Assembly: GCA_012295275.1 (NCBI GenBank)
Contig: CM022677.1
Coordinates: 2,728,001-2,792,000, forward strand
Origin: Chrysomallon squamiferum
Lineage: Eukaryota > Animalia > Mollusca
Length of the DNA: 64,000 bases
Reading direction: 5' to 3'
Positions 309 to 55,525 of the stretch are shown one piece after another. Every line of letters starts with the position of its first letter. Position 1 is the first letter of the stretch. The notes beneath the pieces were generated by a model, which was given only the letters and a program-made list of their open reading frames with translations, was not told where the DNA came from and ran no database searches. The position numbers and the translations under genes are program-made.

Positions 309-804
309 ATGATTAAAGGAATACAAAAATGAAAATATATTTAATTAATTTTAATAAGATTTGCAGAATAAATATAGTAAATAAATAAATAAGAATAAAA
401 ACTAAAAAAAATGTATCTAGTAACTTAAATTTAGTGAAATAAAATTAGTTAAAACCAGTAAAACAAAATTGTAAAATTAAAACTAACCTGACTTGTTTGA
501 TGAATGTTGAGTCTCAGCGGATTGTTTCCTTGGAATTATCTCCCCTGATGTTGTTGGTTCAAAATCAGAAGAAAAAGATGGTCTGGAGAAAAGTATGGAA
601 GTTGACAATTTTGGCGTAGTTGCTGCGGTTGTTTTCTGTGTCTGTTTCGCAGGTGTTGCCACCGATGTGGATGTTGTTGCTGGTGTAGTTACATTATCTG
701 TAAATACATAAAAGACTGTCTCAAGAAGACGTTTGTTGTTTTGTTTTTGTTTTATTAAAAGTTTGTATGTCATCTTTTAACTTTATTATTATTATTATTA
801 TTAT

Positions 805-837
<33 letters not shown>

Positions 838-1816
838 CTGTAGTAGTAGTAGTAATAATTGTAGTATTAGTATTAGTAGATATAGTAGCAGTAGTTTAAA
901 TTATAGATAGCTATTATTTCACAACACATTTATACATACATGCATAAACATATATATTATATACGTATTATGTACATACATACACAGATACATGCCTATG
1001 ATACATAATACTGTTACATTTTACAAAAATAAGTACATACAAACATACAAATACACAAGCACATACCTAGAGATATAGATATTTATATAAGGGTCTCTTT
1101 GTCTATAATCATTTTTAACTAATAAACAAAACGACTTTTTAACAATTTGTTTTACCGTGTTATTTTATACTCACATTTCTGACAAACAGCTGGATTTTTC
1201 TGGTCTGATTTGTAACTGTAATATAATCTGTAATTTTTTGTTAAACCGACCATCCTTTTAAAATCACTTTTAGAATCTGGTTTTCTTAACGATGCCACAC
1301 TACCTGCAAGATTTAAAACAAGTGTGATAGAATTTTGTTTTACACAGAGGAAGAAGTAACAATAAATACTGAATGTCTATTCTTTGTCGTTTTCAGCAGC
1401 AACACGAACATCAGTTAAATAAAGATTATCAAGAACAATGAAAAGATAAATATAACTAACACACAAAGACCCAAACACATACTTCCACACAAACACAACA
1501 CAAGATGTATACACATTTCTGACAACAATTTACCATCAATCCACAGCAGTTTGACATCTCTGTGGAGTCCAATCCAGTAGTAAAGATTTGTTTGTAGCAG
1601 ATTCTGCAGTGATGAGACTGTACTGCTGCTTACTTTAAACATGTCAAAATGTCTGCTTGCATAGTTCCATGACATCCTCCACCGTGAAATACAAGTTTCA
1701 GAATCCCAGTAACAATCTAAAAACAGATAATGAAAATGATGTTATAATGAAGGAATATTTCAATTTATTTTATTATTTATATTACATAGTTCTTCATTAT
1801 TATTAGCAGTAATAGT

Positions 1817-1871
<55 letters not shown>

Positions 1872-4800
1872 GTCATTATCAGATTATTTATTTATTTATT
1901 TATGAACTTTGTTAAAACTGTTACCTGTATAAAGTGTATATGCTCTGTAGCTGTCACAGTTTTGAAAACCAATTGTAAAATTGCCAGAATTGAACTTGAC
2001 GTAGCCGCAGCGCTTGATTCCGTCAGCGCTGTCGTCGATTGTAACTGAAGACGGAAGATCTGTAATGAAGTAATTTTTATATTGTGATAATGATCACTAT
2101 ATCGATGCATATTGATCCCAGACTTTATACATTCATTCATTATTGATTCGTTCGTTCTTTCGGACATCGTTTATTCATTCATTCGTGTGTTCGACTGATG
2201 TTAATAAAATAATTTTAAAAAGATAAATATTTTAAAAATTATGTTAAAGTTGTTTGTGTACCTGTTCTATAAATAGAAATTGTATTTCTTCCTCCGCAGT
2301 ATTCTTCATATGTCCCTGCACATCGAACTCGTTTTGTAGTTGACTTCACAGGACTTGCTGTGTCAGAGATTTCACAGTAACACCGCTTTCCCTACAAAAC
2401 ACGAAATAAATAACAATAATAACAAAAAATAACCTGGAATAAATGTGGAAATAAATTTACAATTAAAGTATGAACACAACAACAACAACGACAACAACAA
2501 CAATAAAAACAAGAGGAGTAATAATAATAATAATAATAATAACAATAATAATAATAACAATAAAAAGAAGGATATTGGTAGTAGTAGTGGTAGAAGTGGT
2601 AATAGTAGTAGAAGATGAAGTAGTTGTATTGGTTGCCGCAGTGACAGTTTAATTGTAGAAGTATATCTGTCTGTGTGTCCCATTTGTCTGTGTGTTATTC
2701 AGGTAACCTAAAACAAGTATATATTTAACACTTTTTTATTTGAATTCAGACTTTATGAAGAGAAGAATTTACCAACCTGTAAACCAATTTTTCCATTGCT
2801 CGGTTTACATTGCTGGAAGCATTTAAAAGCATCATTGTCTTGTATTGAGTATTTACTACTCAAACTCCCAACATCGATATCTCCAACATACTGGAATAAT
2901 TTTTCATTGGAATCTGAAAACAATAACAACACACACACACACACAAAAATTAATTAATAATAAATAAGTAGAAATAATAAGAAGAATAAAAAAATTAAAA
3001 ACAAAATAAAAGAAAAATAAAGCAACTATTTATTTATTTATTTATTTATTTATTTATTTGATGTGTATAGCTCTTATTAGTGGTTTAGTTGTGACTGTTG
3101 ATGTCGTAGATTAGTGATTTTCAAACACTGTGCCGCTGCACACTAGTGTGCCGTGAGAGATTGTCAGGTGTGCCGTGGGAAATTATCCAAGTTAATTTAA
3201 TTAGTCCAGAAAAAGAAATGATTGAGTTACTGCAGGTGAACTGCCATGGTTGAGTGTCTGTGTCTGGCGAAGTAATTAAATACTCTTCCATGTATTGACC
3301 TTCAGGCTGCATCAGCGCCGCAATAATGACGTTGTTAACTTAAGACAACAGAATTAGTGATGTATTTGAGAGGTGACGTCGAGAAGACGTACAGCGATAG
3401 ACGAATATTTGAAAAGTAAATAATGAAGACTCCGAACTGGATCCTGGACAAAATTGTAACCCAGGTGAAAAGCGTAATATGTTGGTGCTGGTCAAAAGAA
3501 AGCAAACTCGCTGAGTTCAAGAAAACACAGTTAAAGTTATCTTTCGCTTCAATTTACTTTTACTGGGATCCTGCTGCACTAACTCTTTGCTTGGTGTGTG
3601 GGCAAAAGGTTAACAACAGTGCATAGTCAGAAACAAGCTTAAACACCATCTCCAAACGAAACATTCGTCACTACAAAGCAAGAACACAGACTAATTTCTT
3701 TTCCTGCGAAAAAACACGGAGGAACAGCAGGCTTTAGGAGAAAAACTACAACGGTGTCTGTGAGAGCTCTCAAAGCTAGTTACTTTGTAGCTGAACTTGT
3801 AGCCAAATTTGAGAAATACAATAAAACTACCTGACTTCAAAACCGTTGTAAATGTGATGTTCAGCCCTGACGCGGTTAAAGAAGTACTTAAAGTTCCTCT
3901 GTCAGATAACACAACTGCCAGACGTATTGATGACGTATTGAAAACACACAATCGTTGATAATGATTAAATTATAAAGTAAAACTTTAATAAAACAGTAAA
4001 CTATTATTTATTTTGTAAACGACATTGAGATTAATAATAAAAGAATACCTACCAGTCCACATCCAAGGTGTAAACGTCTCTAAAGCTCCTACCCAATACT
4101 TTGTGTTGTATTTCATCTGAGAAAAAAGTTTGTCGTAGTCTAAACCAGAATGATGAACAACGAGTCTGCCTCCTGCCTCCTCACAGCCAGAATACGCTGC
4201 CTCCCACCAAGTTTGTTTTTTATCCAGTGTAAAATATTCTTCTAACATTTCTTCTTGTTTTCTGTCAGACCACGGACCTGTGTTCATTTATTAATATTTA
4301 TCTTAATTATTTATTTTGAAATATGTTGTAGAAATTTATAAATACTTACTTTTTTATGTTATGGTATGCTTTAATCAAGTTATGTTATATTGTAATATGT
4401 AATATTGCTATGTTATTATTTTAGTTATATTATGTTATGTTATGTTATACTACAAGTTATAATTAAGTTATGTTAGCGTACATTATGTAATATAGAATTT
4501 ATAGTAAATATTTAATTTTTAAACGATGTTATAACGTGCTAGTTTATTCTATTATGTAAAGTTTTACTGTTATATTAAAACATGTTATCTTAAATCGAAA
4601 CTCTGAGTTTGTCTGAGTTTGTTTTTGTTGTTGTTGTTATTAACTATGTTACCAGTATTTCATGTTAAAAATCCATTAAACATTCATTAGACATGATTTT
4701 ATAAAAAAAAGTCTGCTTTTTACCGCTTAAATATGATCGGCATGTATAAGAAATAAAAATTCTAAAATCCCTATTAATCAATAAATAAAACTTAAATAAA

Positions 4801-6937: not shown

Positions 6938-7188
6938 ATGTCAAAGAAGAAGGTAATATAACCTAAATTTATTTTGTACACTACACATGTCTATGTGTTT
7001 GCATATGTGTGTGTGTGTCTATGTAAATGTGTATATATGAATATATGTATATATTTATGTATATGTCTGTATATATATATACAAGTGTGTATGTATTTAC
7101 ATATGTATCTTTGTACATGTGTGTGTATGTATATATGATTGTTTTGTACATATACGTATGCATTTCGTGTACTTCTCAGCTGTCACAT

Positions 7189-7233
<45 letters not shown>

Positions 7234-8862
7234 GAGGAGCTGTAAGAGACTGATGTGTGCATACTTTGCTAAAACTGTTTTGTTGTGTTTAGATTGAGTC
7301 AAAGATTGGATCACTGGACAATGCAAAACATGTTGCAGGTGGAGGAAAAACCAAGGTAGTTTTTTAAATGTGTGGGTGTCCAACTGTCTCTTAGTGTGTC
7401 TTCTTCTGTTTGTTATAGAAAACCAATTAAATAATAACATGTCTTTCTTTATCTTTCTCTCTCTCTAAATATGTGCGTCACTCTGTCTCTGTCTCTCTCT
7501 GTCTTTGTCTCTCTGGTTTGTCTGTCTGGCTCTCTGTCGGCCTGCCTGTTTATCTGTCTGTCAGTGAGTCTCTGTATCTGTGTCTGTCTGGCTGTATGTC
7601 TCTATGTATGTCTGTCTGTCTGTGTCTCTTTCTGATCTGTCTGGAGTTCTGTGTATATTTGTCAGTTTCTGTCTGTCTGTCTTTAAGTCTCTGTCCATGT
7701 GGCTGTCTGTCTTTTTCTGTATATATATAATATCATATATATGTGTGTGTGTGTGTGTGTCTGTCTGTATGTGTATGTGTCTGATCTGTATGTCTGTCTG
7801 TCTGTCTGTCTATCTCCAGGCTGTCTGCTTGTCTGTTTCAGTCTGTATATGTCTGTCTGTCTTTCTGTCCTTCTTTATTATTATTATTGTTATTTTTTCT
7901 TTCAGTATTTGTGATAATGTACATTTAGAATAAATAAACTAATAACGAGGGCTGATGATGTTTGCCTTATAACACAATTTAATAATAATAACTACAACCT
8001 TTGAAAAAAAATATACAATTTAATTCCACATTTTCAAATTCATATAACAATTTTTTTTCTTTTTCTTTTTTGGCTTTAGCTTTAATTTTCAATTTGCAGT
8101 TAAACATTATTCATACATTTTTATTTGTAATCAAATTCAGTTAAAATAATTGCCTTTTTTTTAAATTATTATTATTTGAGTGGGGAGAAGGAGAAGACTG
8201 ATTTTATAACACTTTTATATTTATCATTTAATTAGGTGTTTGATGAGAAAGTGAAAGTTGAAGCAAAGTCTAAAGTTGGGTCTCTGGACAATGCAGCACA
8301 TGTAGCTGCTGGTGGAAAAGAGAAAGTCATTATTTTATTTTATTTTATTTTATTTTATTTTATTTTACTTTATTTTATTTTGTATTGTTTTATTTTATTT
8401 TATTTTTCTTTATTTTATTTTTGTTTGGTTCTGTATGCTGATAATTTTGATGATGTTGATAAAAAAAAAAAAACATTATTTTATGGATAATTTGTAAAAT
8501 TTATTTTTATTATGATGTAGATTTACTGGAAGTAATAAATTATAATAAATTATAAAAATATTTATTTATTGTTTTTTGGTTGTTTATTTATATTTGTTTA
8601 TCTTATATTTTACTTATTACTGTTATTTTCTTTTAATATTTTATTTTATTTTATTTTATTTAATGTTATTTTATTTATTTATTTGTTTATTTTTTTGATC
8701 TATCTTTTATTTATTTATTTATTTATTTATATATTTATTATTAATTAGGTGTTTGATGAGAAAGTGAAAGTTGATGCAAAGTCTAAAGTTGGATCCATGG
8801 ACAATGCAGCCCATGTAGCTGGTGGTGGTCAGGAAAAGGTCATTATTTATTTATTTATTAAT

Positions 8863-8909
<47 letters not shown>

Positions 8910-11587
8910 TAGTTTAAAACTTTAACATCAGGTTTAATTTAAATCTATTTAAAATAATTATTTTATATTAATTTCACTCTCTGCAGTAAAAGTATCTTGT
9001 GGAATTCAAAGTCTTGAATGTATTAATGTGCAGTGATATAATTTGGAATAATTATGTTGTTGAAGGTGTGAGTTAAACATTTCAGGTGTTTGATGAGAAA
9101 GTGAAAGTTGATGCAAAGTCTAAAGTTGGATCTCTGGACAATGCAGCCCACGTAGCTGGTGGTGGTCAGGAAAAAGTCATTATTTTATTTTATTTTATTT
9201 TATTTTATTTCATTTCATTTTATTTTATTTTAGTACTACTTTTGTAGTGTTTAATTTATTAATTTTATTATTTATTTTCTCAAAATATTTAAAATGAAAA
9301 TATTATTATTATTGTTTTTGTTCTTGTTTGTCATTATTATTGTTGTTGTTTTTATCATTATTTAATTAACTTTTTTATTTTTAAATTATTTATTAGGTGT
9401 TTGATGAGAAAGTGAAAGTTGATGCAAAGTCTAAAGTTGGATCTCTGGACAATGCAGCCCATGTAGCTGGTGGTGGTCAGGAAAAGGTCATTATTTATTA
9501 ATTAATTTATTTATTTATTTATTTATAGTTTAAAACTTTAACATTTATCTAAATTTCCCAGTAGCGATAGGTTTAATTTAAATCTATTTAAAATAATTAT
9601 TTTATATTAATTTCACTCTCTGCAGTAAAAGTATCTTGTGGAATTCAAAGTCTTGAATGTATTAATGTGCAGTGATATAATTTGGAATAATTATGTTGTT
9701 GAAGATGTGAGTTAAACATTTCAGGTGTTTGATGAGAAAGTGAAAGTTGATGCAAAGTCTAAAGTTGGATCTCTGGACAATGCAGCCCACGTAGCTGGTG
9801 GTGGTCAGACCAAGGTATGTGTTATACTGAAATGTGTGTGTTACACTGAAATGTATGTGTTACACTGAAATGTATGTGTTATACTGAAATGTATGTGTTA
9901 CACTGAAATGTATGTGTTACACTGAAATGTATGTGTTACACTGAAATGTATGTGTTATACTGAAATGTGTGTGTCATACTGAAATGTATGTGTCACACTG
10001 AAATGTATGTGTTACACTGAAATGTATGTGTTATACTGAAATGTATGTGTTACACTGAAATGTATGTGTTACACTGAAATGTATGTGTCATACTGAAATG
10101 TTTGTGTCATACTGAAATGTTTGTGTTGTACTGAAATGTTTGTGTTATACTGAAATGTTTGTGTCATACTGAAATGTTTGTGTCATACTGAAAAGTTTGT
10201 GTTACACTGAAATGTTTGTATTACACTGAAATGTATGTGTTATACTGAAATGTTTGTGTTATACTGAAATGTTTGTGTCATACTGAAGTTTGTGTTGTAC
10301 TGAAATGTTTGTGTCATACTGAAATGTTTGTGTTACACTGAAATGTTTGTATTACACTGAAATGTTTGTGTTGTACTGAAATGTTTGTGTTACACTGAAA
10401 TGTTTGTGTTGTATTGAAATGTTTGTGTCATACTGAAATGTTTGTGTCATACTGAAATGTTTGTGTTACACTGAAATGTTTGTATTACACTGAAATGTTT
10501 GTGTCATACTGAAATGTATGTGTTACACTGAAATGTTTGTGTCATACTGAAATGTATGTGTCATACTGAAATGTTTGTGTCATACTGAAATGTTTGTGTC
10601 ATACTGAAAAGTTTGTGTTACACTGAAAAGTTTGTGTTACACTGAAACGTTTGTGTTGTACTGAAATGTTTGTGTTACACTGAAATGTTTGTGTTGTACT
10701 GAAATGTTTGTGTCATACTGAAATGTTTGTGTCATACTGAAATGTTTGTGTTATACTGAAATGTTTGTGTCATACTGAAATGTTTGTGTTATACTGAAAT
10801 GTAGGTGTTATACTGAAATGTAGATGCTAAACTGAAATGTTTGTGTAATACTGAAATGTTTGTGTCATACTGAAATGTATGTGTTGTACTGAAATATATA
10901 TGTTATACTGAAATGTTTGTGTTGTACTGAAATGTTTGTGTTATACTGAAATGTTTGTGTTGTACTGAAATGTTTGTTATGCTGAAATGTTTGTGTTACA
11001 CTGATATGTTTGTGTTATACCGAAATGTTTGTGTTACACTGAAATGTTTGTGTTGTACTGAAATGTTTGTGTTGTACTGAAATGTTTGTGTTATACTGAA
11101 ATGTTTGTGTTATACCGAAATGTTTGTGTTACACTGAAATGTTTGTGTTATACTGAAATGTACATGTTATACTGAAACGTATGTATTGTACTGAAAAGTT
11201 TGTGTTGTACTGAAATGTTTGTGTTGTACTGAAATGTTTGTGTTACACTGAAATTTACGTGTTATACTGAAATATTTGTGTTATACTGAAATGTTTGTGT
11301 TACACTGAAATGTTTGTGTGATACTGAAATGTACATGTTATACTGAAATGTTTGTGTGAATCATTTCTCTTTGTTGCTGTGTCATCATAGTTGCCATTGT
11401 TATTATTGATTTATTGCAATTATTATTAATATCATTATTATTATTATCATCATCATCATTATCATTATTATTATTATTAATATCATCACCACCATCATCA
11501 TCAGTATTATTATCATCATTATATTTATTATTAAATTTTTATTATTATTTTCATTATTACCATCATTGTTTTCTTTTTAATTTTTTC

Positions 11588-11621
<34 letters not shown>

Positions 11622-11773
11622 AATATTGTTGTTATTATTATTATTAAAAAATTTTAATTATCGTTACAATTATTCCTATTATTGTTGTTATTGTTGTTGT
11701 TGTTGTTGTTGTTATTGTTATTGTTATTGTTATTGTTATTCAGATTGAGAGTCACAAACTGGATGACTGGTAA
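6938..11773 (+). CDS. Small tau/MAP2-type microtubule-binding-repeat protein (185 aa, about 6 repeats, no projection domain)
   Basis: Coding exons 6938-6952 (MSKKK), 7293-7355 (IESKIGSLDNAKHVAGGGKTK), five 90-nt exons 8236-8325, 8749-8838, 9086-9175, 9397-9486, 9725-9814 (VFDEKVKV[D/E]AKSKVGS[L/M]DNAAHVA[G/A]GG[Q/K][E/T]K), and 11744-11773 (IESHKLDDW*). All introns are phase 0 and GT-AG. The SK[IV]GSLDN..H..GGG motif is the tau/MAP2 tubulin-binding repeat. Confidence 0.85.
9815..11358. repeat. 19-bp minisatellite (about 80 copies) filling most of the last coding intron of the mini-tau gene
   Basis: Unit gt[at]tgtgt[tc][ag][tc]actgaaat repeats head-to-tail, starting at the donor site at 9815. 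Confidence 0.95.
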
Positions 11774-19420: not shown

Positions 19421-19682
19421 TCACACTTCATTGCTCATCTCGCTGGTACTGCTGGTGCTGGACCTGGGGGGGTGCTGACCAGAGGGGCTGACTCCGTGGT
19501 CTGTTTTTGCCTTTGCAGTTTCCTTGAAAGAAAGTTTCTGAGACTCAATCTGAAACATTTAAAAATTTTAAATTTACAATTAAATATTTTAAAATATGAA
19601 GAGAAATGTGCTCAGTATATTTAGCAACAATTATGTAATTTTTAGAATTTTGAGAAACTGCTTCTTCATATTATACTAAATT

Positions 19683-19719
<37 letters not shown>

Positions 19720-20623
19720 CTCAATATTATAGCATATAGGCCAAATCTAAAATATGTTTTATTTAAAAATTTGGTATTTAAAATAATTTTACTTAAAATC
19801 AATATTGCTGAGTACATAAAAAAAAAATAATAATAATAAAATAATAATTTGAAATAAAATAAGTACTTTAATTGTAGACAACATTGAAATACACAAAATG
19901 GAAAAATATTTTAAATTATTGTTTTTATTATTATTACTTTTTCTATTAATTTATTTGATAAACATTAGTGTTGCTAGAACAAACAAGAAATAATTTTAAA
20001 AAGTTAAAAATAACTAATTTAAAAAATTTCTCTACTTTTTCCATCAATATCACAGTAACAAATATGAAATAATAAATTTTTTAAATATTTAGAATTATCA
20101 AGATTTTATGAATATTATGGAATAGAGAATCAATTTTCAATAAATCAAAAATAATAATAAAATATAAAAATAAAAATTATATTTTAAATTTCACAAATAT
20201 ATAAAAATTTAGAAAATATATATTTTAAATCTTTCTTTATAGAAGAAACTCAAATAAGAAATACAAATAATATCACTGTGTCCATTCTTTTCAACTGACC
20301 ACTACCTAAATATCCCAACATCCTTTGCACCAGATGTTTCATGTACATGCAAAGATTAAAGGTATAGAAGGCGGTTTTTAAGTGTAAAAACTTACAAACT
20401 GATTGTCTTTATACAATTTGTAGAATTGCATCTATCAGTTTACTCTTTATTACAACTGAAACCATTATTTTTTTTTAATATTCTAAATTCCAGTCTACTT
20501 ATTAATTTATGAAGAGAAAAACATTTACTAATTTCTTCAGTTTTAATGTTTATATTTTTACCTTTTGCCTCAAAGTACTTTTGAACTAAAGAATTAAGAT
20601 TAGATAATAAGAAAGTAATTTGA

Positions 20624-20656
<33 letters not shown>

Positions 20657-21410
20657 TTTTATATAACTGTAACTAGTGTAAATAAATAAGTAAATACTTT
20701 ATATTATTCACAGATTAAAATCTGCTGTCATCAGAAACACAAAACAAAGATTAAAAATTCAGCAACCCTGATGGACTGTAACTACAAAAACTAAAAAGAC
20801 TGAGCCTTCAGAAAATACAATTACCTTCAGGTTTTGACAGTATCAAAACACAGGTTATTCTAATGACACACAAATACTCATATAAACATAACCACACACA
20901 AAAAACACACAAACATATTCACTGACAAAAAAAAACCTCACATAAATACCACATCAAATCTTACTTACAAGTATGAAACACATTAATTCTACATAAATTA
21001 ATCACGTACAAACATTTTGTATTGAGTGAACTCTAAGAATAGTATGATACGAATGTTTTTAGAATATTTCTTGTCACAAAATCACACACACAACACTGTC
21101 ACACACTAACAGAGCTAATCACACACAAACATATGCATATACTCACACACAATCACACATATACATACACACACACACAATCACACATATATATACATTA
21201 ACACACAAATCATTTCTGTCTTCATTTTGCATTCTTTCTTCTAAGACACTCACAGAGAAAAAAGAACAGTTCACATGTTTATACATAAACATGAAAAAAT
21301 ACAAAAACTTATACCCACATTATACACATACTCATTTATTGAGAAACTAGTCAAAGTGAACTTTATAAATAAATTACATTATACATATGTAAGTCTGTAT
21401 GTGAGTGTGC

Positions 21411-21448
<38 letters not shown>

Positions 21449-21510
21449 TAGGATTTTGACTGTTCTCTGTGAACAAGGTCTAATCATGACCTCACAAACC
21501 TTGACCTATA

Positions 21511-21541
<31 letters not shown>

Positions 21542-21945
21542 TGTATCTGTGTGTGTGTGTGCATTTCTCTGTGTATTTATGTATGTATGTATGTATGTAT
21601 GTGTGTGTATCTGTGTGTGAGTGTATTTCTCTGTGTATTTATGTATGTATGTACGTATGTATGTGTGTGTATCTGTGTGTGAGTGTATTTCTCTGTGTAT
21701 TTATGTATGTATGTATGTATGTGTGTGTGTATCTGTGTGTGAGTGTATTTCTGTGTATTTATGTATGTATGTATGTATGTGTGTGTGTGTGTATCTGTGT
21801 GTGAGTGTATTTCTCTGTATATTCATGTATGTATGTGTGTATCTGTGTGTGTGTGAGTGTATTTCTCTGTGTATCTATGTATGTATGTATGTATCTGTGT
21901 GCGTCTGAGTGTATTTCTCTGTGTATTTATGTATGTATGTGTGTA

Positions 21946-21981
<36 letters not shown>

Positions 21982-24900
21982 TGTATTTCTCTGTGTATTT
22001 ATGTATGTAAAACTACAAATGTAGACATTCTGTTACTGACTATTTTAAACACTAAGCTACTAAAACTTACAGTCACGCATCATGTAGTAATCAGAGTTGT
22101 CAGGTGACAGAGAATTTGATTTGTTCTTACTCGGCAGCGAATCCACTTTTGATTTCACATTCCACTTCACTCTCTTACTCGGAATAACATAGTTACCTCC
22201 CCTTGGAGTGTGGTGGATATTTTCCAGTGAGCCCACTTTGGGCCTCGCCCGCCAGTTTGTTTTGAAGTGCGGGATTTTCACTCGCCCCCCTCTCGGTTGG
22301 TAGGAAATGTTTTGCAAAGAACCGATTTTTGATTTTCCGTCCCAGCTGAGTTTCTCCTGCAGGAAGAGCACGTCCCCGCCCGAGGGGCTGTAGCTGATGT
22401 TGTCAAACGACCCGATTCTTGACTTTGCGTTCCAGCGACACTTGAACGTCGGAATCTTTTTGTTTCCACCCTGAGGAATGTGGTCAATGGCCTCCAGAGA
22501 TCCGACCTTTGACCTGACGTGCTCGAAGTTCTGCTTCCGTTTCACCACAGTGGCGCCCCCTGGTGTGTAATGAACATTGTCGAGCATGCCGATGTTGGCC
22601 GCAGCACCATAACGACTTTTCAGCTTGGGAAACGTCATCGTGGTGGTGTTGTTGCCCTGTTTCAGTGGTTCGCTCTGGCTTCGCCAGTGTTTCACTGGGT
22701 GGTCGATGTTGTCAAACGAACCAATCTTCGAGCTCGCTGTCCACACGACTTTCTCCGAGAATATTCTCTTCTGCCCTCCGCCCGGCTGGTGGTCATAGTT
22801 GTCCAGGGATCCGATCTTCGGACGGGCGTTCCAGGGCAGGGTGCAGCCGGGCAACTCCCTGCTCTGACCGCCTCGCTTGGTCAGCGAACTGACGCATGTA
22901 GAATACTTCCACTGTGGTCTGACTGATCGGAACTTCACCTCCGAGGAGTTTTTCAACTTCATTAGGTTCCACGGAGAATGTTCCTGGGTTACTGGGGCAA
23001 CAGGCTGAAGTTTGCGAGGATATTTCTCGATGACGATGTATTTGCCGTCACTCCGTTTTTTCACTGTGACGTACGGAATAACAAACGGAAGAGGTTTCCC
23101 GTCTGGACTGTGTTTTGAATAATCATATCTGTCCAAGGGACTGAACTTCAGCTGACCTCCAGGATGAGTTGTCCTCCCATAAGGAATTAAGTTTCGATTT
23201 TGCTCAGTTTCTGACATTTTGATGGATGAAGATTTTTATTTTATAAAAATTTTCTTAAAACAAGTTCATTTTTAAAAATACTTTATTTATTACTTTAAAT
23301 ATATATTTTTTTTCTGAAAGAATGGTTTTCTACTTCAATACTGATCAGTCCGTTTAAAAAAAGATTTTTAAAGACAATTTATCTAAAGAAAATTTTAACA
23401 ATTACTATCATTATTAAACTGCAAACAGTACAGACTTTGATTTCAAAAACCTTTTTGTTTCTTTCTTTTCTTAAAAATGTTTCTTGTCTTTCTTTAATCT
23501 TTTTTAGATTTGAAAATATTTAACCAACTGCTAGTTATTAGTTTTGTAAATCACGACATCCATAACAATAAGTTAATTCTCTATATATATATATATAAAA
23601 AAAAAATCGTAGTTTTAATCCAAATTTCTAGAAATAACGTAACCTTTAAAACTTCATCTTTCTAGACACAACATTTCTATGACTGTTACCACATCTAAAA
23701 CTTTGCACCAAATAAAAATAATTCTAATAAAACTAGTTTCTTCCTCAGAATCAGACACACCAGCACAAACACATGTGAATGAAAAAACATGTTATCCTCA
23801 GAATACACATCCTGCTTCTATCTACATGTGTAGATGTACAAATACTGAAAATTGTCAAACTAACAAGATGGTTGTCATGGAGACAAAAAGCAGAAACACC
23901 TGAAAATCAATAAATCTTATCACTAACGTCTCATGTCTTCAGATTATTCTTCAGTGCAGATTGAGAGGAAAGTGTATCTGCTATTTTCAAATAATAATCA
24001 GTCGCAAAGTGAGATGATTTTTAAATGAAAACTAATTGAGAAGTTTGTGTGTTATTTAGAAAGTGAACTTTCGCTGCCATTGAGAAAATAAGTAAATACT
24101 CCAGAAAACAAAGACAGCACTTTATCTGCTACTTAAAAACTCAGAATATTTCTTTCCTGTTTACAAAGTCAGTGCATTTCTTCTTCTTCTGAAAAATCAT
24201 CTTTCTCATTTAGAAACTGTAAACTGTTGTTTGTTTTAAAAGTTGTAAATTCTGTTAATTAGGAAACAACACAGTCCCTTGTTCAGAAAAAATCATCACA
24301 TTCCTCCTCATTTAGAAAATCTGCAAATTCATCATCTTTCCATTGTTCAAAAAAAAAAAAAAATAAATAAAAATAACTCAGTCACCATTCAACTCATTTT
24401 CAAATTCAAATCACCGAAACTAATTTCTTCTGTCACTGACATTTTCCATTTCTCAAGAGACTGTTAAACTTTATATTCACTTTGTGTCTGGATTATCCTG
24501 TTACATGGACAAAGCACAACAGCGGTTTATCAGTTCACTACTCAAATCCTTGTTCCAGGCAATCAATTTTTCCTTTCCTTTATTCACGGCAATCAAAGTA
24601 GAGATAAAGGTGTAGAACTTCATTCATTTCACCTGTAGCGGCTGACGACTCTGTCTCAGGTGTTAAAACACACCTTGACAACATGAGAACTAATGTACGA
24701 ACTGAATACATTTACCTGTACATTTAAGTGGGTGTTTATTTAAGTAAATGTTTATGTCTATATCCATATCTGTGTGTGAATGTGTGTGTGTGTGTGTGTG
24801 TGTATTTATGTGTGTGAGTGTACTTATGTAAATATGTATATATGCATGTTTGTATGTATATATATATATGTGTGTAAGTATGTATAAACATAATACATGT

Positions 24901-27900
24901 ATTTTATATATATATATATATATATGCACACACAAACATATATAGTAAATATATAGTAATGGTACATAAATACACATTTATACATAAATACATACAAAAT
25001 ATGAACACATACATATGCAGGCATAAACACTATAAAATAAACACACACACACACACACACACACAGACTCCTCTATATTTAATAAGTTATATAAAGGAAC
25101 CAATTTGTGAAATAACAAAACTGATTTCTATTTGCCTGCTAGTTCTACTAATAAGAATTTCCTAGGTAAATACTTTTAATGTGAAAACACCACAAATACC
25201 AGCCCTGTTTGTTGTTCTTTTTCTCTCAAACACTAAACCCATTGCTTGAGATCTGAGACTTTTTCCAGCTGGAATGCTAAAGTCACAGTGCTCATATTTA
25301 TTACTTCTTTCAAGTACCCTGAACATGTGAAACGTCATTGATTATGAATAGATTTCTTTTTCTTCCATAAATAAAGATCAGTTATATTTAAATATCATAA
25401 AAGGTGTCGAGTACAGTTGGGTAAGGGAGAATAAGTTGGCTGAAAGGAATCTTGATTTTTGTTTGAGGAAAGTAAATATACAATTTTTGTTTGTGTATGG
25501 TTGTGGTAATAATAATGATAATAATGAAATAAATAACAATAATAATAATAATAGTAAACAATAATGATGATGATGATGATGATAATAATAATAATAATGA
25601 TAATAAAAACAACAATAATAATAAAAAAATAATTGTAACAATGATAATAATAATAACATAAACACAAATACAAATTAAAAAAATAATACTAATATTAATT
25701 ATAATCATAAGCATAATAATAACAATAACAAAAATTAAGTGTCTCTGTTTATGTAAATATTGTATCAAGATACTGAAATGTTTAATGGTGTTTTTAAAAA
25801 CACAAGGATTAGTTTAAACCACTTTTTTTTTATAAGACACACTTAGTCACCATGAGAATTCAAACAGAGAAAAAAAACTTTCTTAAAGATACTGTAACAA
25901 TATATTGTTTTTAATTTTTGTTTTAATATTTGTACATTCATTCTTTATTTACTCTTTCTTTTCATTTGATTTGATATTGATAATTTTAGCATTATTATTT
26001 TTAGTTATTACTGTTGTTATTTTATTAATATTATTTATTTATTATTATTATTAATATTATAGAAGTCTACAGTTCATGCTTAGATATTTGTTTTAATAGT
26101 GAAACAATGTTTAATAAAATAAACTGCCTTAATAATTTTTTATTTAAATTGTTGTCTACTTATATTATTAATTTTACTGTTAATGTACTTATTTTTTAAC
26201 ATTTTTAATCATTTGTTATTCTGATATTTTAAAATTTCAACACAATTTCAAATACTATAAAGAACAATTAAATAATAATAAGAATAATAAGAAGAAGAAG
26301 ATGAAGAAGAAATATTAAAAACAATTGATACAACTTTGGAAAAAATTACGAAGAAAAGTTTTGTTTTGTTGTTTATTTTTACATATATTAATAAAAAAAA
26401 AAAAAAATGCTTTATTTTAAAAAATATTTTACTTCTACAATATCACAGTTTAAAACTTCCCAAAGCATAAGAAATTGCAAAATCACACAGTCACAATAAC
26501 TTGTAAAAATATTTCAAATCTTCATACCTTAGCACTAACATATAATCACAGTTCAAACAAAAATCTCTCTTGTCACTGTTATCAAAACTTCACAAACAAA
26601 CTAAAACAACCACCATATCAAAAACAATCTACTTGTTACTACTTTAAAAACATAAACATTTGAAATATTCCAGGTGTCACTACATGTCACGTTTGAAAAA
26701 TAAATCACATGTCACTATTAATACAACATCAAATTTGAAAAAAGTTTAACAAAATCATATTCAAAAAAACCAAAAAAACCAACATGAATTGTTATTATTA
26801 TTCTAATCTCCCATTTCAAAAATATCTCATATGACATTTTAAAATATTCAACTTGTCTAATAATCAAAACACTAATACATTTAAACTTGTCACTATCACA
26901 CTATAAAAACATCTCTCCAAAATCACAATATCACAAAATTTCAAAAAATCACAACACCTGATTACCTTTCTGTTCCCCCCCTGGGGCTCATGGTGGACAT
27001 TGTCTAACGACCCCACCTTACTATCCACCTTCCATTCAACTTTATGCTTTTCAATCTTTGCAGAAAAACAAAAAATTAAATTGAAAATTAAATCTACTTT
27101 TTATTTCAAACCACAGGACCACTGTATTTATTTATTTATTTGTTGTTGTTGATTTGTTTTTTTTAAATTTTATTAACAGATATCCCAAAAAAAAAATTAC
27201 ATTGAAAATTAAATTTACTGTGTAATTCTAAACATTGACCATTGTATTTATTTATTTACTTATTTTTATTTTATAATCTTATTAAAAGACAAAAAAAAAA
27301 AATATATATATATATATATTGATTCTATAATTATAAGCATTGGCCATTTATTTATTTATTTACTTTTTTTATTTTTTTAGTAAAATGAAAATTAAGATTA
27401 GTTTAATTCTAAACTCTGGTCTTTGAATTTATTTATTTATTTAAATTGACAGTTGTAGAATAACAAATAATCAGAAAATTAAATCTAGATTTAATTTGAT
27501 ACATGAACCATTGTAATTATTATTTTTTTTTTTCCCCATTATTAGCCACATTGTTGCATATTCAGTTTCCAAATTATAATGTAGAGGCATACCACATGCA
27601 TACAGATAAAATAAAATAAAAATATACATACATACATACATATATATATATTTTGTATTCTTTTCTTTTCTTTTAACAAGAGGAAAGGAAAATCATTTTA
27701 TGTTCATAATGGCTACAACATTTTAAAAATACTTATTGCCTTACTTTATTATTAGTAAAGGTTGGTATGGCAACTAAACAATAAAGTAGAAGCATTCAGT
27801 ATAAGAAGGCTGTTTTTTTTATAGGTACACAGAAAAGATGATGTAAACAGAGAAATGATTAAACTGAAAGATGTGTACACTGAATGAGAAAGAAATGTTT

Positions 27901-29664
27901 TTAAATAATCTCAACCTATTTATTAGCCTGTAGAACATTTTCTTTATGTTTGTGGTTGTTTAATAACTGATAAAGAGATAAATACTTTTTAATTCCTTTT
28001 TCTGCATTCATTGGATTTCTCATTTTCATAAAACAAACACACGGATAAACACAAACTCCCCCACACACACACACAGACACACACAGATACACACAGACAA
28101 ACACACACTAGAGACCAGAAGTTGGTAAGTAAATAACGACATTTTCTTCTACATTTAAAACACACACGTTCAGGTTACCAACATTTATTCCCCAATAATT
28201 GGGGAAATTCCCCAACCCCATAAATTATCTTCTTTTTAAAAAAAAAATAAAAACTGTAATTTAAATATAATGTTAAATATGTAAAAAATAATCATCACAT
28301 ATGTACACACAGACAGTTACAAATGTGTATTTAAGTAAATAAACGTTTTTTTTTTGTTGTTTTTTTAAATCATACAATGTAGATTATTTAATTACAGGAC
28401 AGTGGGGTGGGGTAGTTTTTTTTACCTTTTTATTGCCTCCCCCAGGTGTGTGGTGTACTTTGTCCAGGGAACCAACTTTGGGTTCAGTTTTCCATTCCAG
28501 TTTCTTGCTCTCAATCTGAAATAAATAAATAAATAGATAAATAAATAAATATATATAGCAGTAACAATAATAACAACAGTAACAACAACAATAATAACAA
28601 AACAACAATTATGATAATAATAATAACATTATCATAACAACAAGTTAGATATATATATATATAAAATGTTCTCACTGTTCAGTATATAAATATTCATATT
28701 AATAAATTAGAAAAAACTAAATATATTTATTCTTCACTCTAGATCATGTTTGAATATTTTCAGATAAAATATACCTTTTTTGTGCCTCCTCCAGGAACAT
28801 GTTTAGCATTTTCTAGGGATCCAACTTTTGATTCCGTCTTCCACTCCAACTTTTTACTTTCAATCTGTAACCAAAAAAACAAAACTTCAGTTTATTTTAA
28901 ATAAATATACAAAACAAAAAACATATATATATATTAATAGAAGGACATGCCTATCATCTTCTTAAGTTAGTGTTTAAACTTTTCTAGAAGCAAAACACTT
29001 AAGCATTCATTTCACTCAGTGAAACAAGTGATCATGCAAAAAAAACCAGATGATCATGATGATGATAATGATGATGATAACAAAACAGACATTATTCACA
29101 GAGTATTAAAATTATTGATTTAAATGTTTGGTAAAAGAAAGAATATTTATAAGTAAAGACTGGAATTTAAACAAAAATACAAATATAAAATATAATAATA
29201 ACAATAATAATAATAATAATAAACTTATTAATAAAACAGATATATAATAAGAAAAAAGTAGTTTTTTAGTATATATATATTTGTTTTAATTTAAAAATTA
29301 AAAATGTATTATTATTCTGTTTGAAGAACATCTGTTTTCTTAATTTCATAAAATAAATAATAACCAACTATAATAATAATAATAACAAACAAAATATCAA
29401 TAAAAAAGTAAAAATAGTATAAAGTCATATCTCCTCCCTGAAGAGCAGAAAAAGTAAAGCTTTACAAAAACATTTAGAATCAAAGAAAGAAAATTAGTTT
29501 CATTATACTGAACAAAAACCATTTCCTGTTACCAGAGTTGTCTTAGTGTCCAGAGTTACCTGCCCTTGTCTTACCTTCTTGTCACCGCCCCCTGGCACAT
29601 GGCTAGCGTTTTCCAAAGAACCAATCTTTGATTGCGCATTCCAAGTTACTTTCTGTGATTCAAT
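19421..29664 (-). CDS. MAPT: Tau/MAP2/MAP4-family microtubule-associated protein, 3' portion (upstream exons not found; probably beyond or lost at the assembly gap)
   Basis: Phase-0 90-nt exons 29575-29664 (IESQKVTWNAQSKIGSLENASHVPGGGDKK), 28775-28864 (IESKKLEWKTESKVGSLENAKHVPGGGTKK), 28426-28515 (IESKKLEWKTEPKVGSLDKVHHTPGGGNKK), 26966-27055 (IEKHKVEWKVDSKVGSLDNVHHEPQGGNRK). Terminal exon 19421-19549 reads IESQKLSFKETAKAKTDHGVSPSG...NEV*, matching the vertebrate tau R' segment IETHKLTFRENAKAKTDHG. The symbol denotes the MAPT/MAP2/MAP4 family, not proven one-to-one orthology. Confidence 0.9.
21510..22008. repeat. Compound TG/TATG minisatellite with core gagtgtatttctctgtgtatttat
   Basis: About 9 cores separated by variable (tatg)n/(tg)n tracts, just downstream of the nested ORF stop codon. 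Confidence 0.85.
22060..23217 (-). CDS. Intronless 385-aa protein with 7 tau-type microtubule-binding repeats plus 1 partial, nested in the last intron of the tau/MAP2 gene
   Basis: Uninterrupted ORF, much GC-richer than its flanks. Repeats: PKIGSLDNYDHQPGGG, SKIGSFDNIDH, NIGMLDNVHYTPGG, SKVGSLEAIDHIPQGG, SRIGSFDNISYSPSGG, SKIGSLQNISYQPRGG, PKVGSLENIHHTPRGG, SKVDSL. The ATG is in an aaaATG context with an in-frame TAA 7 codons upstream. Confidence 0.88.
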   Translation of the reverse strand: MSETEQNRNLIPYGRTTHPGGQLKFSPLDRYDYSKHSPDGKPLPFVIPYVTVKKRSDGKYIVIEKYPRKLQPVAPVTQEHSPWNLMKLKNSSEVKFRSVRPQWKYSTCVSSLTKRGGQSRELPGCTLPWNARPKIGSLDNYDHQPGGGQKRIFSEKVVWTASSKIGSFDNIDHPVKHWRSQSEPLKQGNNTTTMTFPKLKSRYGAAANIGMLDNVHYTPGGATVVKRKQNFEHVRSKVGSLEAIDHIPQGGNKKIPTFKCRWNAKSRIGSFDNISYSPSGGDVLFLQEKLSWDGKSKIGSLQNISYQPRGGRVKIPHFKTNWRARPKVGSLENIHHTPRGGNYVIPSKRVKWNVKSKVDSLPSKNKSNSLSPDNSDYYMMRDCKF

Positions 29665-30932: not shown

Positions 30933-31132
30933 NNNNNNNNNNNNNNNNNNNNNNNNNNNNNNNNNNNNNNNNNNNNNNNNNNNNNNNNNNNNNNNNNNNN
31001 NNNNNNNNNNNNNNNNNNNNNNNNNNNNNNNNNNNNNNNNNNNNNNNNNNNNNNNNNNNNNNNNNNNNNNNNNNNNNNNNNNNNNNNNNNNNNNNNNNNN
31101 NNNNNNNNNNNNNNNNNNNNNNNNNNNNNNNN
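30933..31132. other. Assembly gap (200 N)
   Basis: Run of 200 n; a round size typical of a scaffolding placeholder. Confidence 0.99.
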
Positions 31133-38969: not shown

Positions 38970-39832
38970 ATTCTCTCCCTTTAACATGAAAAAGAATAAC
39001 CTCTCGGATAGAGTTATGTTCCCGTTGTTACATTTTTTCTCCTTGATTATTCAGGTTAAAACGAACATATTCCTATATAGATTTATCTCCCTTTAACATG
39101 AAAACGAATAACCTCTCGGATGGAGGTATCTCCCCTTTGTTACATTTTTCTCCTTGATTATTCAGGTTAAAACAAACATATTCATGTATAGAGTTATCTC
39201 CCCTTTGTTACATTTTTCTCTTCATTATTCAGGTTAAAACGAACATATTCCTATATAGAGTTATGTCCCCTTTCCTAGATTTTCCTCCTTGATTATTCAG
39301 GTTAAAACGAACATATTCCTATATAGATTTATCTCCGTTTAACATGAAAACGAATAACCTCTCTGATAGAGTTATCTCCCCTTTGTTACATTTTTCTCGA
39401 TTATTCAGGTTAAAACGAACATATTCCTATATAGAGTTATCTCCCCTTCGTTACATTTTTCTCTTGATTATTCAGGTTAAAACGAACATATTCCTATATG
39501 GAGTTATGTCCCCTTCGTTACATTTGTCTCTTGATTATTCAGGTTAAAACGAACATATTCCTATATAGAGTTATGTCCCCTTTGTTAGATTTTTCTCCTT
39601 GATTAGTCAGGTTAAAACGAATATATTCCTATATAGATTTATCTCCCCTTTGTTACATTTTTCTCTTGATTATTAAAACGAACAGATTCCTATATAGAGT
39701 TATGTCCCCTTTGTTACATTTTTCTCCTTGATTAGTCAGGTTAAAACGAATATATTCCTATATAGATTTATCTCCCCTTTGTTACATTTTTCTCTTGATT
39801 ATTAAAACGAACAGATTCCTATATAGAGTTAT
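38970..39832. repeat. Tandem array of ~67-bp units (gattattcaggttaaaacgaacatattcctatatagagttatctcccctttgttacatttttctc)
   Basis: Unit starts at 39466, 39533 and 39601 give a 67-68 bp period; a ~40-bp variant sub-unit is interleaved. Confidence 0.9.
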
Positions 39833-40701
39833 CTGATAAACCCTTTAATAATATAAGAAAGGGGAGATAACGTCATCCAAGAAAGTATTCGTTTTCATAT
39901 TAAAGGGAAATAACTCTATTTGTGAATATATTCGCTTGTAACTATTATTAAGAATTTTTTATTCAATATAGAAGATTGTAAAAGCAGAGCAATAATAAAA
40001 AGAAATAAAAACGCATGGCCCCTACCCCCCTGCCCTAGTACCCCACCCTCACAGCTTGTACTTTTGGAATCCGATGGAATCCTATTCCAGATTCATCTAC
40101 GAAATATTGTGGAAACATCACTTTCTTTATATATAACATGGGTCATACCCCGTGATGTGTCACCAGAGGTGGGAGGAGTTTACTCGGCGAAGTAAAGGCT
40201 ATATTGATTACAGTTTAGTGATATGTGCTCACAAACGTAGATTAGAGTTATGTCCCTTACGTGAGATGTATTCACTAAGCAAAGTGGAAATTATATCGAT
40301 TAGAGTTATCTTGAAAAATGAAATAAAAAAGAATAATGATGTAGTTTCTAATTTAGATTTCTGTTTCATTTAATTCATTTAGTTAACTGCTAAAGAAATG
40401 CTATTTAATTATTCAGTCAAGTTATGAAAAAATAATTCTAATAAAAACATTATTCACATAATAGAAGATTGTAACAGCAGAACAAAAAAAAAATAGTTTA
40501 AGAAATAAAAACGTATGGCCCCTGCCCCCCTGCCCTAGTACCCCACCCTCACACAGCTTGTGAAGGTACAGAACAATGTTTCTTGTAAGCATGTTCATGT
40601 GCGTGAGATCGTGGGATTGAATCTCAGCGTTTTTGGAGACATCAGCATTTCCGATTCCAGATTCATCTACGAAATACTGTGGAAACATCACTTTCTTTAT
40701 A

Positions 40702-42520: not shown

Positions 42521-42644
42521 GTTAATGATTTAGTGGAACTTTATGGCTAATGAATTACATTAGGTATATTGATAACCACAACAGTAAAGCATTAAACAGC
42601 ACATTTCTAAAGTTATAAAGCATGTTTTATATTCCATTTATATA

Positions 42645-43482
42645 TCAGTAGTATGGTTGAAATAACAGTGACAGATTAGTAGTAATATCAGTAGTATGGT
42701 TGAAATAACAGTAATATCAGTGACAGATTAGTAGTAATAGCAGTAATATCTCTGAAGTAGCAGTCACTGATTAGTGGTAATATTAGTAGTATGGCTGATG
42801 TAACAGTGACAGATTAGTAATAATAGCGTAGTATTGCTGAAGTAATTGATAGATTAGTAATAATAGTGGTATTGCTGAAATAAAAGTGATTAGTAGTAAT
42901 ATCAGTAGTATCGCTGAATAACAATGGTAGATTAGAAACAATAGCAGTAGTATCGCTGAAGTAACAGTGATAGATTACTAGTAATACAGTAGTATCGCTG
43001 AAGTAACAGTGATAGATTACTAGTAATACAGTAGTATCGCTGAAGTAACAGTGATAGATTAGTAGTAATACAGTAGTATCGCTGATGTAACAGTGATAGA
43101 TTACTAGTAATACAGTAGTATCGCTGAAGTAACAGTGATAGATTACTAGTAATACAGTAGTATCGCTGAAGTAACAGTGATAGATTACTCGTAATACAGT
43201 AGTATCGCTGAAGTAACAGTGATAGATTACTAGTAATACAGTAGTATCGCTGATGTAACAGTGATAGATTACTAGTAATACAGTAGTATCGCTGAAATAA
43301 CAGTGATAGATTAGTAGTAATACAGTAGTATCGCTGAAGTAACAGTGATAGATTACTAGTAATACAGTAGTATCGCTGAAGTAACAGTGCTAGATTACTA
43401 GTAATACAGTAGTATCGCTGAAGTAACAGTGATAGATTACTAGTAATACAGTCCTATTGCTGAAGTAACAGTGGCAGATTAG
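42645..43482. repeat. 42-bp minisatellite
   Basis: Unit gtaacagtgatagattactagtaatacagtagtatcgctgaa; about 12 near-perfect copies from 42945, preceded by degenerate copies. Confidence 0.95.
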
Positions 43483-43612
43483 CAGTTTTGAGAGATTTAT
43501 AGATATAAAAAAAAGGATACTATGTAAACAGTTTTTGAAATGTTTTAAATATATTTATAAATGCATCGTTCTAGAAGTGTATTTCTGTACAATCCCGAAT
43601 GATGATGTTAGT

Positions 43613-54490: not shown

Positions 54491-54739
54491 ATTGTGTAAT
54501 AAATTCATGTAAAGTTCCATGCTATATGTTATGAACATTGGCCCTGCATGTACAGTCCTTGTGCAAAGATTAACGTTAGTGAAACAAACAGATAAAACGT
54601 ATAAGTAAAAAAATGTACTGCCATAAAAAATAAAATAAAAATAGATATAGTTCAACAACAGAAATAAAATTAATAGATATTTTTGGATTATAATTAATTT
54701 TGTTTTCTCCTACAATGTTACTGCAGTTATCAATACGAA

Positions 54740-55525
54740 ATGGGAAAAGTAAGAGCGTCCAAGAAACGGAAAGCACAGGATGATGGGTGCCCTGAGAAGC
54801 CTCCAAAAGGGCGAAAGATTTCCGAACGTGACCCTGGAGAAACATCACGTAGAGGACCAGGGACATCAACATCTAGGAAACGGAAAGGACAGGATGATGG
54901 GTGCCCGAAGAAGCCTCCAAAAGGGCGAAAGATTTCCGAACGAGACCCTGGAGAAACATCACGTAGAGGACCAGGGACATCAACATCACGGAAACGGAAA
55001 GCACAGGATGATGGGTGCCCGGAGAAGCCTCCAAAAGGGCGAAAGATTTCCGAACGTGACCCTGTAAAAGCAGCATGTGAAGAAAGACCAGGGATGTCAA
55101 CATCACCATCACCCAGCACTGCTGAATCAACACAACAGCCTGAATCAGATAAGTCACCTACTTGTTCTTTGTGTTCAGAAGAATTTTTAGATAAGTGTCA
55201 TGCAGACTCGTGTTTACATGAATTTTGTTTCAGCTGTTTGGAGAGGTGGTCTAGAAGCAGAAGAAATTGTCCAGTTTGCTCTGCAAGATTCACCGCCATC
55301 GTTTACAACTTAAGTGATGGAAACTGCGAGATGTACACATTGCCACCTCTCAGAGTCAAAAGAGTCAGAAGACATTCTCCAGCTGGACCAATCAGACGTA
55401 TATTTACGTATATCGGTCGTATATTTACATTTATTCGTCGTATAGTTACTTCTCTGTTGTGGAAAATCTTATTTGTGCTAATCGAATTTTGTCTTCTGAC
55501 AGGTCGTTTACTAGGATATGCTTAA
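54740..55525 (+). CDS. Topors-like RING-HC (C3HC4) E3 ubiquitin ligase-like protein with 38-aa basic N-terminal repeats and a hydrophobic C-terminus, 261 aa, single coding exon
   Basis: CSLC...CLHEFCFSCLERWSRSRRNCPVC, followed by SARFTAIVYNL, resembles the Topors/ICP0-type RING. About 2.7 copies of a 114-bp repeat (RKRKAQDDGCPEKPPKGRKISERDPGETSRRGPGTSTS). An acceptor-like ctgcag lies 13 nt before the ATG. Confidence 0.75.
   Translation: MGKVRASKKRKAQDDGCPEKPPKGRKISERDPGETSRRGPGTSTSRKRKGQDDGCPKKPPKGRKISERDPGETSRRGPGTSTSRKRKAQDDGCPEKPPKGRKISERDPVKAACEERPGMSTSPSPSTAESTQQPESDKSPTCSLCSEEFLDKCHADSCLHEFCFSCLERWSRSRRNCPVCSARFTAIVYNLSDGNCEMYTLPPLRVKRVRRHSPAGPIRRIFTYIGRIFTFIRRIVTSLLWKILFVLIEFCLLTGRLLGYA

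Follow-up and report, generated by a model that had tools for sequence, protein, structure and literature searches.

When an intact, tau-like open reading frame (ORF) is found within an intron of a tau gene, is it a gene of its own, an exon of its host or the relic of a copy? This question is raised by the window analysed here, a stretch of 64,000 nucleotides from Chrysomallon squamiferum, for which an earlier reading of the letters alone (the sequence-only reading) had reported an intact 1158-bp ORF and had taken it either for an old paralogue with its own start, hosted by its own parent and held under selection, or for a giant alternative last exon of tau. The ORF indeed runs from 23217 to 22060 on the minus strand and encodes a protein (P0001) without internal stop, six stretches of which match Pfam family PF00418 (E 2.8e-62; 206.7 bits, curated cut-off 27). 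No open frame exceeded 197 codons in 200 shuffles of its bases, and the in-frame stop seen seven codons before the ATG was confirmed (Table 1). Its GC content of 0.50 differs from the 0.26 of the remaining intron, as had been noticed; since host exons also show values of 0.40-0.52, this contrast marks coding DNA and is no sign of a foreign origin. By its sequence, the ORF is a tau-family gene, a divergent paralogue and a non-canonical tau that lacks a projection domain.

Table 1. Positions of the nested ORF, its parts and its tau host (window coordinates), and of two ORFs on bivalve contig L001.
Feature	Positions	Strand	Evidence or remark
Nested tau-like ORF P0001	22060..23217	-	385 aa + stop; pI 10.1, net charge +36
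In-frame stop, 7th codon upstream of nested ATG	23236..23238	-	sequence; stop-to-stop ORF from 23235
Family-specific conserved N-terminal region, residues ~25-125	22843..23145	-	alignment, profile
Predicted beta-hairpin, residues 50-64	23070-23026	-	AlphaFold pLDDT ~78-87; remainder low
Repeats 1 (complete) and 2 (truncated), Trp-type, 30 aa	22675..22854	-	repeat alignment
Conserved family-specific linker, RYG...HYTPGG motif	22546..22626	-	alignment, profile
Repeats 3-6, one host-R2-like, then three Trp-type	22186..22545	-	repeat alignment
Final half-repeat (KVDS) and start of tail, counterpart of host terminal-exon half-repeat	22096..22185	-	alignment
Candidate 5' splice donor GTAAGT, phase 1, over last codons	22065..22070	-	seen in sequence; putative use
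First AATAAA past nested ORF, ~720 nt after stop	21335..21340	-	candidate own poly(A) site if the gene is unspliced
Low-depth RNA-run contig 5' of nested ORF	23931..24174	-	5' UTR candidate, or intronic/DNA background
Host repeat exon E1	29575..29664	-	cassette; X4 links E2 to another upstream exon
Host repeat exon E2	28775..28864	-	RNA contigs, AG/GT borders
Host repeat exon E3	28426..28515	-	contigs of RNA runs X1, X3 and X4 join it to E2
Host repeat exon E4	26966..27055	-	cassette; skipped in X4, inclusion not seen
Host terminal exon, coding part	19421..19549	-	proven acceptor; candidate splice partner of nested gene
Bivalve orthologue, single ORF	L001:1076-2602	as second ORF	locus scan
Second intronless tau-like ORF, 445 aa, P0009/P0013 family	L001:5869-7206	+	ORF, 55% identity to P0013

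The first 125 residues of P0001 have a net charge of +12 and contain 13 prolines. They had been described as a basic, proline-rich and unique N-terminus; the first two attributes hold, whereas the third does not, as the region is conserved across molluscs. Searches of Pfam, PDB sequences, Foldseek and the atlas gave no match to it (best atlas value 0.80, below threshold). Repeats that are strongly diverged and yet keep the tau signature had been noted correctly: five K[IV]GS motifs and one RIGS motif are present, and 8-16 of 30 residues are identical to the host repeat exons, which share 16-23 of 30 among themselves. An exact PGGG occurs once and P-x-GG variants occur four times, repeat 2 being truncated. 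The host tail KAKTDHG is absent as written, but the final half-repeat has its counterpart, with K-V-D-S of P0001 aligning to K-T-D-H of the host terminal exon. The repeats match human tau structures. The AlphaFold model has a mean pLDDT of 46 and a pTM of 0.17 and is confident for the hairpin of residues 50-64 only, the low values elsewhere being consistent with intrinsic disorder and, at an alignment depth of 27 sequences, no proof of it. Homology of the RYG linker to the KYG pseudo-repeat of the host is ambiguous (profile probability 87) and was not relied on.

The host exons E1-E4 are 90 nt long each, in phase 0, have AG/GT borders and lie on the same strand as the nested ORF. The closest protein retrieved for the host was tau of Gigantopelta aegis (88% over two repeat exons, 71% over the terminal exon). 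Four public runs cover the region, three of RNA from one study and one of unrecorded type that behaves as DNA. An RNA contig of run X4 contains E2 and E3, and its loose end equals positions 19520-19549 in 30 of 30 letters. It thus joins 28426 to 19549, which means that host mRNA is spliced across the nested ORF and that E4 can be skipped, the evidence being one contig from one of the three RNA runs. The ORF therefore lies within an intron that is removed from host mRNA, on the same strand, as the sequence-only reading had proposed; the intron limits given there (19550-26965) apply if exon 26966-27055 is included, and the sole informative RNA contig skips that exon. Similarly, none of the four Gigantopelta tau isoforms has anything between the E3-like and the terminal exon. 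Searches by tblastn found no host 5' exons in the window, including the 33 kb past a gap of 200 N at 30933-31132, and X4 links E2 (at 28866) to an upstream repeat exon that is absent from the window. The 5' exons are placed beyond the window, across either a very long intron or a scaffolding break.

The window also contains a second small tau-like gene (6938-11773, plus strand) that converges on the host. Its first exon has 5 codons and is followed by one of 63 nt, by five 90-nt repeat exons that are almost identical and by a short last exon; it would encode ~185 residues, nearly all of them repeats, if every exon is used; a tandem array of the 19-bp type occupies 9812-11357. Exon-like frames at 483-4287 (minus strand) presumably resemble a C-type lectin and a Thr-rich membrane protein. 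Tandem arrays with long open frames at 39008-39834 and 42640-43486 are likely satellites. Long inverted repeats (~48.6-54.5 kb versus 56.7-61.1 kb, 86-96% identical) flank a plus-strand ORF (54698-55525) for basic tandem repeats and a C3HC4 RING finger, and the segment 48641-61094 is possibly a palindromic mobile element.

The best matches to P0001 were full-length orthologues with 33-68% identity, among them XP_067685815 of Haliotis asinina, XP_050405114 of Patella, XP_021368827 of Mizuhopecten, K1QMM2 of the Pacific oyster and XP_045207177 of Mercenaria, which carry the automatic names tau-like, MAP2-like, MAP4-like or uncharacterised. Of 330 collected proteins, 86 carried the N-terminal profile. 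When 1.84 billion representatives were searched with it, 15 matches resulted, 12 of which were family members, whereas three unrelated, bacterial-type repeat proteins matched the hairpin only and were discarded. Every named member comes from a gastropod (Haliotis, Patella, Lottia, Elysia, Plakobranchus, Batillaria, Nucella, Pomacea) or a bivalve (Mizuhopecten, Pacific oyster, Saccostrea, Mercenaria, Mya, Dreissena), with no named cephalopod among the profile and homologue matches, and the divergent P0072 and P0021 may come from other groups. In the family alignment G58, V62 and E64 are invariant, and the start methionine is aligned in at least 90% of 27 rows, some bivalve orthologues having N-termini longer than that of P0001. 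A tree of 48 rows, made by a quick method, separated limpet, heterobranch plus caenogastropod, pteriomorph and heterodont groups (support 98-100; group names taken from named rows) from the host taus, the monophyly of the family itself carrying no support value. Since orthologues occur in gastropods and bivalves, the nested gene should be older than the split between these classes, and the bivalve lineage dates to the early Cambrian according to the part of PMC5700196 that was available. The gene is, by the orthologues found, common to both classes and hence older than the sequence-only reading implied, and its view of an old paralogue with its own start, hosted by its own parent, is sustained by orthologues in two classes, their grouping in the tree and an intact, selected ORF. 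Five other tau-like proteins (P0154, P0164, P0016, P0055 and P0079, one of them from the nemertean Lineus) have Trp-type repeats and odd termini and are possibly further intronless lophotrochozoan paralogues.

Adjacency of the orthologue and tau across species is well supported. Both lie on one contig in four of the five species in which both were found (H. asinina, H. rubra, Mercenaria and Mya; the shared contig of H. rubra measures 1.0 Mb), and in Nucella they are on separate contigs, the tau model there being without its terminal exon. Identifiers are consecutive in H. rubra (host tau XP_046580151-164, orthologue XP_046580165), and in Mizuhopecten LOC110460313, which is tau according to the supplement of PMC11763176 as far as available, adjoins by identifier the orthologue LOC110460314. 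The orthologue model of Batillaria terminates in the tau terminal exon and should therefore precede that exon on the same strand. A metagenome locus scan with 15 bivalve query sequences gave two loci from 43 pattern matches, both too short to reach host exons, so that the evidence for nesting in other species comes from gene models and identifiers. Nesting within tau is supported by these for gastropods; for bivalves it is adjacency that the data evidence, and from it we infer nesting. On the bivalve contig L001 a second intronless tau-like ORF follows the orthologue 3.3 kb downstream, with a GTAAGG 15 nt past its stop. No paralogue of this type occurs in the C. squamiferum window.

The gene had been called intronless. 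This holds for the coding ORF, which is uninterrupted, and is doubtful for the transcript, as the sequence-only reading missed a candidate splice donor at the 3' end that overlaps the last four codons and has its matching protein signature in 11 of 20 gastropod clusters, so that the gene is probably not strictly intronless. GTAAGT occurs three times in the 7.4-kb intron, the donor at 22070 included. If a phase-1 donor of this kind is read through, cysteine (T-GT) followed by glutamate or lysine is encoded, and such a dipeptide was found 22-31 residues past the last Trp in those 11 clusters, which share descent and do not represent independent events; a twelfth case, the Cys-Lys of P0007, sits within the half-repeat and was discarded. 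The background is one in 6633 dipeptides of the protein bodies, and bivalve tails have none in 27. The tails after the dipeptide run for 2-60 residues and differ between close relatives, those of close Elysia relatives (3-60 residues) including some microsatellite-like Cys-Val runs. The other nine clusters comprise one with Ser-Lys, which is the closest relative and is compatible with an A-GT-AAG donor that did not keep the Cys, two ending in Tyr-stop, the Batillaria fusion, two of limpets and three divergent ones, with the signature absent from the limpet and divergent clusters and from all bivalves. Donors of the orthologues were deduced from protein sequence alone. One gene model of Elysia crispata leaves the ORF exactly at the dipeptide codon, where the genomic calls in its cluster show read-through; the next exon of the model is not recognisably that of tau.

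When the ORF of the window was joined in silico to the host terminal exon, a protein of 383 residues with a Tyr-stop end resulted, which is the ending of two orthologues. A conserved donor suggests a terminal exon shared by the nested gene and its host. In gastropods the nested transcript would be spliced from the donor at its end onto the tau terminal exon, where the shifted frame would lead to an instant Tyr-stop, and would thereby share the tau 3' UTR. We consider use of the donor at 22070 moderately probable, with the tau terminal exon as its likeliest partner; none of the reads or contigs in the public runs examined spans a splice at this site. Our joint reading, which we favour at slightly better than even, is that of a selected tau paralogue of gastropods and bivalves with one coding exon inside a tau intron, its own start and the last exon of tau.

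A serious competitor, which we hold to be possible and distinctly less probable, is the same selected paralogue as a self-contained gene of one exon that ends at its own stop (22060) and uses its own poly(A) site, for instance at 21340; Cys-Glu/Lys would then be kept for protein reasons, or the donor would be a minor one. Models of three Haliotis species and one Logan protein read through the donor into a common tail, five Logan clusters, which may derive from DNA or from RNA, also read through the dipeptide, and the bivalve orthologues on L001 and L002 are uninterrupted and without the donor, none matching it at the orthologue end on L001. An AATAAA is also at hand downstream of the stop. Self-containment does not sit well with the varied length of Elysia tails and their Cys-Val runs, with the Ser-Lys of the closest relative, which retains a possible GT-AAG yet loses the Cys, or with the Tyr-stop ends of two orthologues, and we therefore keep to the reading with a shared last exon.

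As to the origin of the nested gene, the ORF is uninterrupted in the window and in L001 and L002 where the host has separate 90-nt exons, as for a retrogene with an intron-bearing parent. In the best profile alignment, residues 215-367 are colinear with the end of R1, R2 and the Trp repeats of the host, and the first two repeats and the N-terminus fall outside this order, giving a repeat order unlike that of the host. At the DNA level, short matches only remain between the ORF and the host exons; at such an age, a poly(A) remnant and a target-site duplication are not expected to survive. The view that the gene is retrocopy-like is thus plausible for the colinear part, and the two repeats before the linker misfit a plain retrocopy, for which reason we regard retroposition as fairly probable and no more; the similarity of the repeats to one another makes colinearity weak evidence for it. 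The nested gene would then derive from a processed copy of the tau repeat region that later underwent an internal duplication and gained a new N-terminus.

A DNA-level duplication, or a tandem amplification of 90-nt repeat exons within the intron with loss of their introns, is the less likely origin, but one to be taken seriously. It would account for the two Trp repeats that precede the R2-like repeat; repeat exons duplicate readily, as the five near-identical ones of the plus-strand gene illustrate, and the second intronless paralogue on L001 would also fit. The succession of R1-end, R2, Trp repeats and terminal half-repeat is, on the other hand, that of spliced mRNA, and reverse transcription is a simpler route than losing about five introns at once.

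The other possibility raised by the sequence-only reading, that tau transcripts splice into the ORF at an internal in-frame acceptor and gain about six repeats from it as a giant alternative last exon, fared badly and appears very unlikely. The ORF does share the strand of its host, which has many cassette repeat exons, and in-frame AG sites exist (for example 23151, 23004 and 22983). Their upstream T content amounts to 0-0.29, compared with 0.41-0.71 at host acceptors, and thus no host-like T-rich tract is present. Position 23004 is downstream of the invariant hairpin, most of these AGs are downstream of G58, V62 and E64, and all three variants in codons 1-70 are synonymous. Across three species, 26 annotated host isoforms lacked both the N-terminal and the linker profile. 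Among 120 matches longer than 674 residues, which are weak evidence on isoforms, the single one with the N-terminal profile is a bivalve orthologue with a long N-terminus, and the other 119 lack it. A start of its own is therefore the better reading of the nested ORF, with transcription presumably from an internal promoter.

Comparison of the run variants with the window revealed 32 differences within the nested ORF, of which 26 were synonymous and 6 non-synonymous (255 and 843 sites, respectively), corresponding to a pN/pS of 0.07 (binomial p 7e-12), a result against which errors in low-depth contigs would work. Selection on the ORF, claimed earlier, is in agreement with these values. Contigs of two of the three RNA runs cover parts of the ORF at a depth of 2.8-6.4, intronic stretches have 2.2-5.5, and X3 has no contig over the ORF; since the ORF depth resembles intronic background, neither expression nor its absence is claimed. 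The cover of X2 is missing upstream of 23313, which carries no weight for divergence of the flank. A non-functional, neutrally evolving processed pseudogene, with which RNA cover no higher than background in the three RNA runs would agree, was rejected as having practically no chance against an intact ORF, a pN/pS of 0.07 and intact orthologues in two mollusc classes.

What might the protein do? In tau and MAP2 a projection domain and microtubule-binding repeats make up a bipolar molecule, and their KxGS motifs are recognition sites of MARK kinases (available part of PMC6468450). An acidic N-terminal projection domain is absent from P0001, the high pI and charge of which (Table 1) compare with a pI of 7.2 and a net charge of -1 for Gigantopelta tau. 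P0001 is predicted to bind and stabilise microtubules under regulation at its KxGS motifs and without a spacer, and as a disordered, strongly basic protein with six KxGS-type repeats it would stabilise microtubules and bundle them closely. It probably does so in one limited kind of cell; sperm and ciliated cells are a guess, as is testis-type expression by analogy with mammalian nested genes, which trend to testis expression (PMC11694760, as far as available). Our search found no mollusc tissue data for the nested gene and no paper naming six orthologue identifiers, and the orthologue was not found in the supplements of PMC8534442 and PMC8353863 when looked up for tissue expression. The available rows of a table of PMC11763176 list the host tau only, and further rows may hold the orthologue.

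Tails of the EEY/F type are read by CAP-Gly proteins, and an acidic tail ending in Tyr can be likened to them. The likeness belongs to an extended reading to which, taken jointly, we give little credence. One or two processed tau copies would have resided in the last intron of their own parent since before the gastropod-bivalve split, and in snails the inner gene, read from an internal promoter, would borrow the last exon of tau in a shifted frame and with it an acidic tail with terminal Tyr. Inner promoter and donor would compete for the shared exon, and the locus would alternate between a tau with a spacer and a hyper-basic one that lacks it, the latter serving specialised microtubules, for example those of the sperm tail.

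The nested gene represents an overlooked, old, single-copy branch of tau. Its conserved N-terminal motif is new, and it offers a natural test of how the repeats act on their own. For a paralogue to be retained by its own parent in two classes of animals is an unusual architecture. If the frame-shifted exon is indeed shared, gastropod gene models have wrong C-termini and a single locus yields two tau-like proteins of opposite charge design. The orthologues are already in databases as automatic models; a description of the family or of its nesting was not found, nor were papers on a tau paralogue inside tau, in a search that was thin on subscription journals.

When compared with known systems, P0001 resembles tau/MAP2/MAP4 as represented by Gigantopelta aegis XP_041371890 in its six repeats, KxGS and PGG motifs, predicted disorder and terminal half-repeat, and differs from it by a single coding exon, the lack of a long acidic projection domain, an N-terminal hairpin, an array broken by a linker and the location inside tau. 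With the database orthologues (e.g. XP_067685815 and K1QMM2) it shares the N-terminal motifs, the linker and the repeat layout. Saitohin (STH) is, like the nested ORF, a single-exon gene within an intron of a tau gene, human MAPT (PMC4815063, the available text of which names molluscs merely as outgroups); in contrast to P0001, a tau paralogue in two mollusc classes, it is limited to primates, overlaps repeats and is not tau-like. Nested retrogenes are common and may alter splicing or poly(A) choice of their hosts, an effect of the kind that the sequence-only reading had thought possible for inclusion of the host terminal exon; KTI12 in TXNDC12, Mcts2 in H13 and Nap1l5 in Herc3 are, like P0001, intronless copies in a host intron (PMC5408686, as far as available). 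The hosts of these three are unrelated genes, whereas the host of P0001 is its probable parent.
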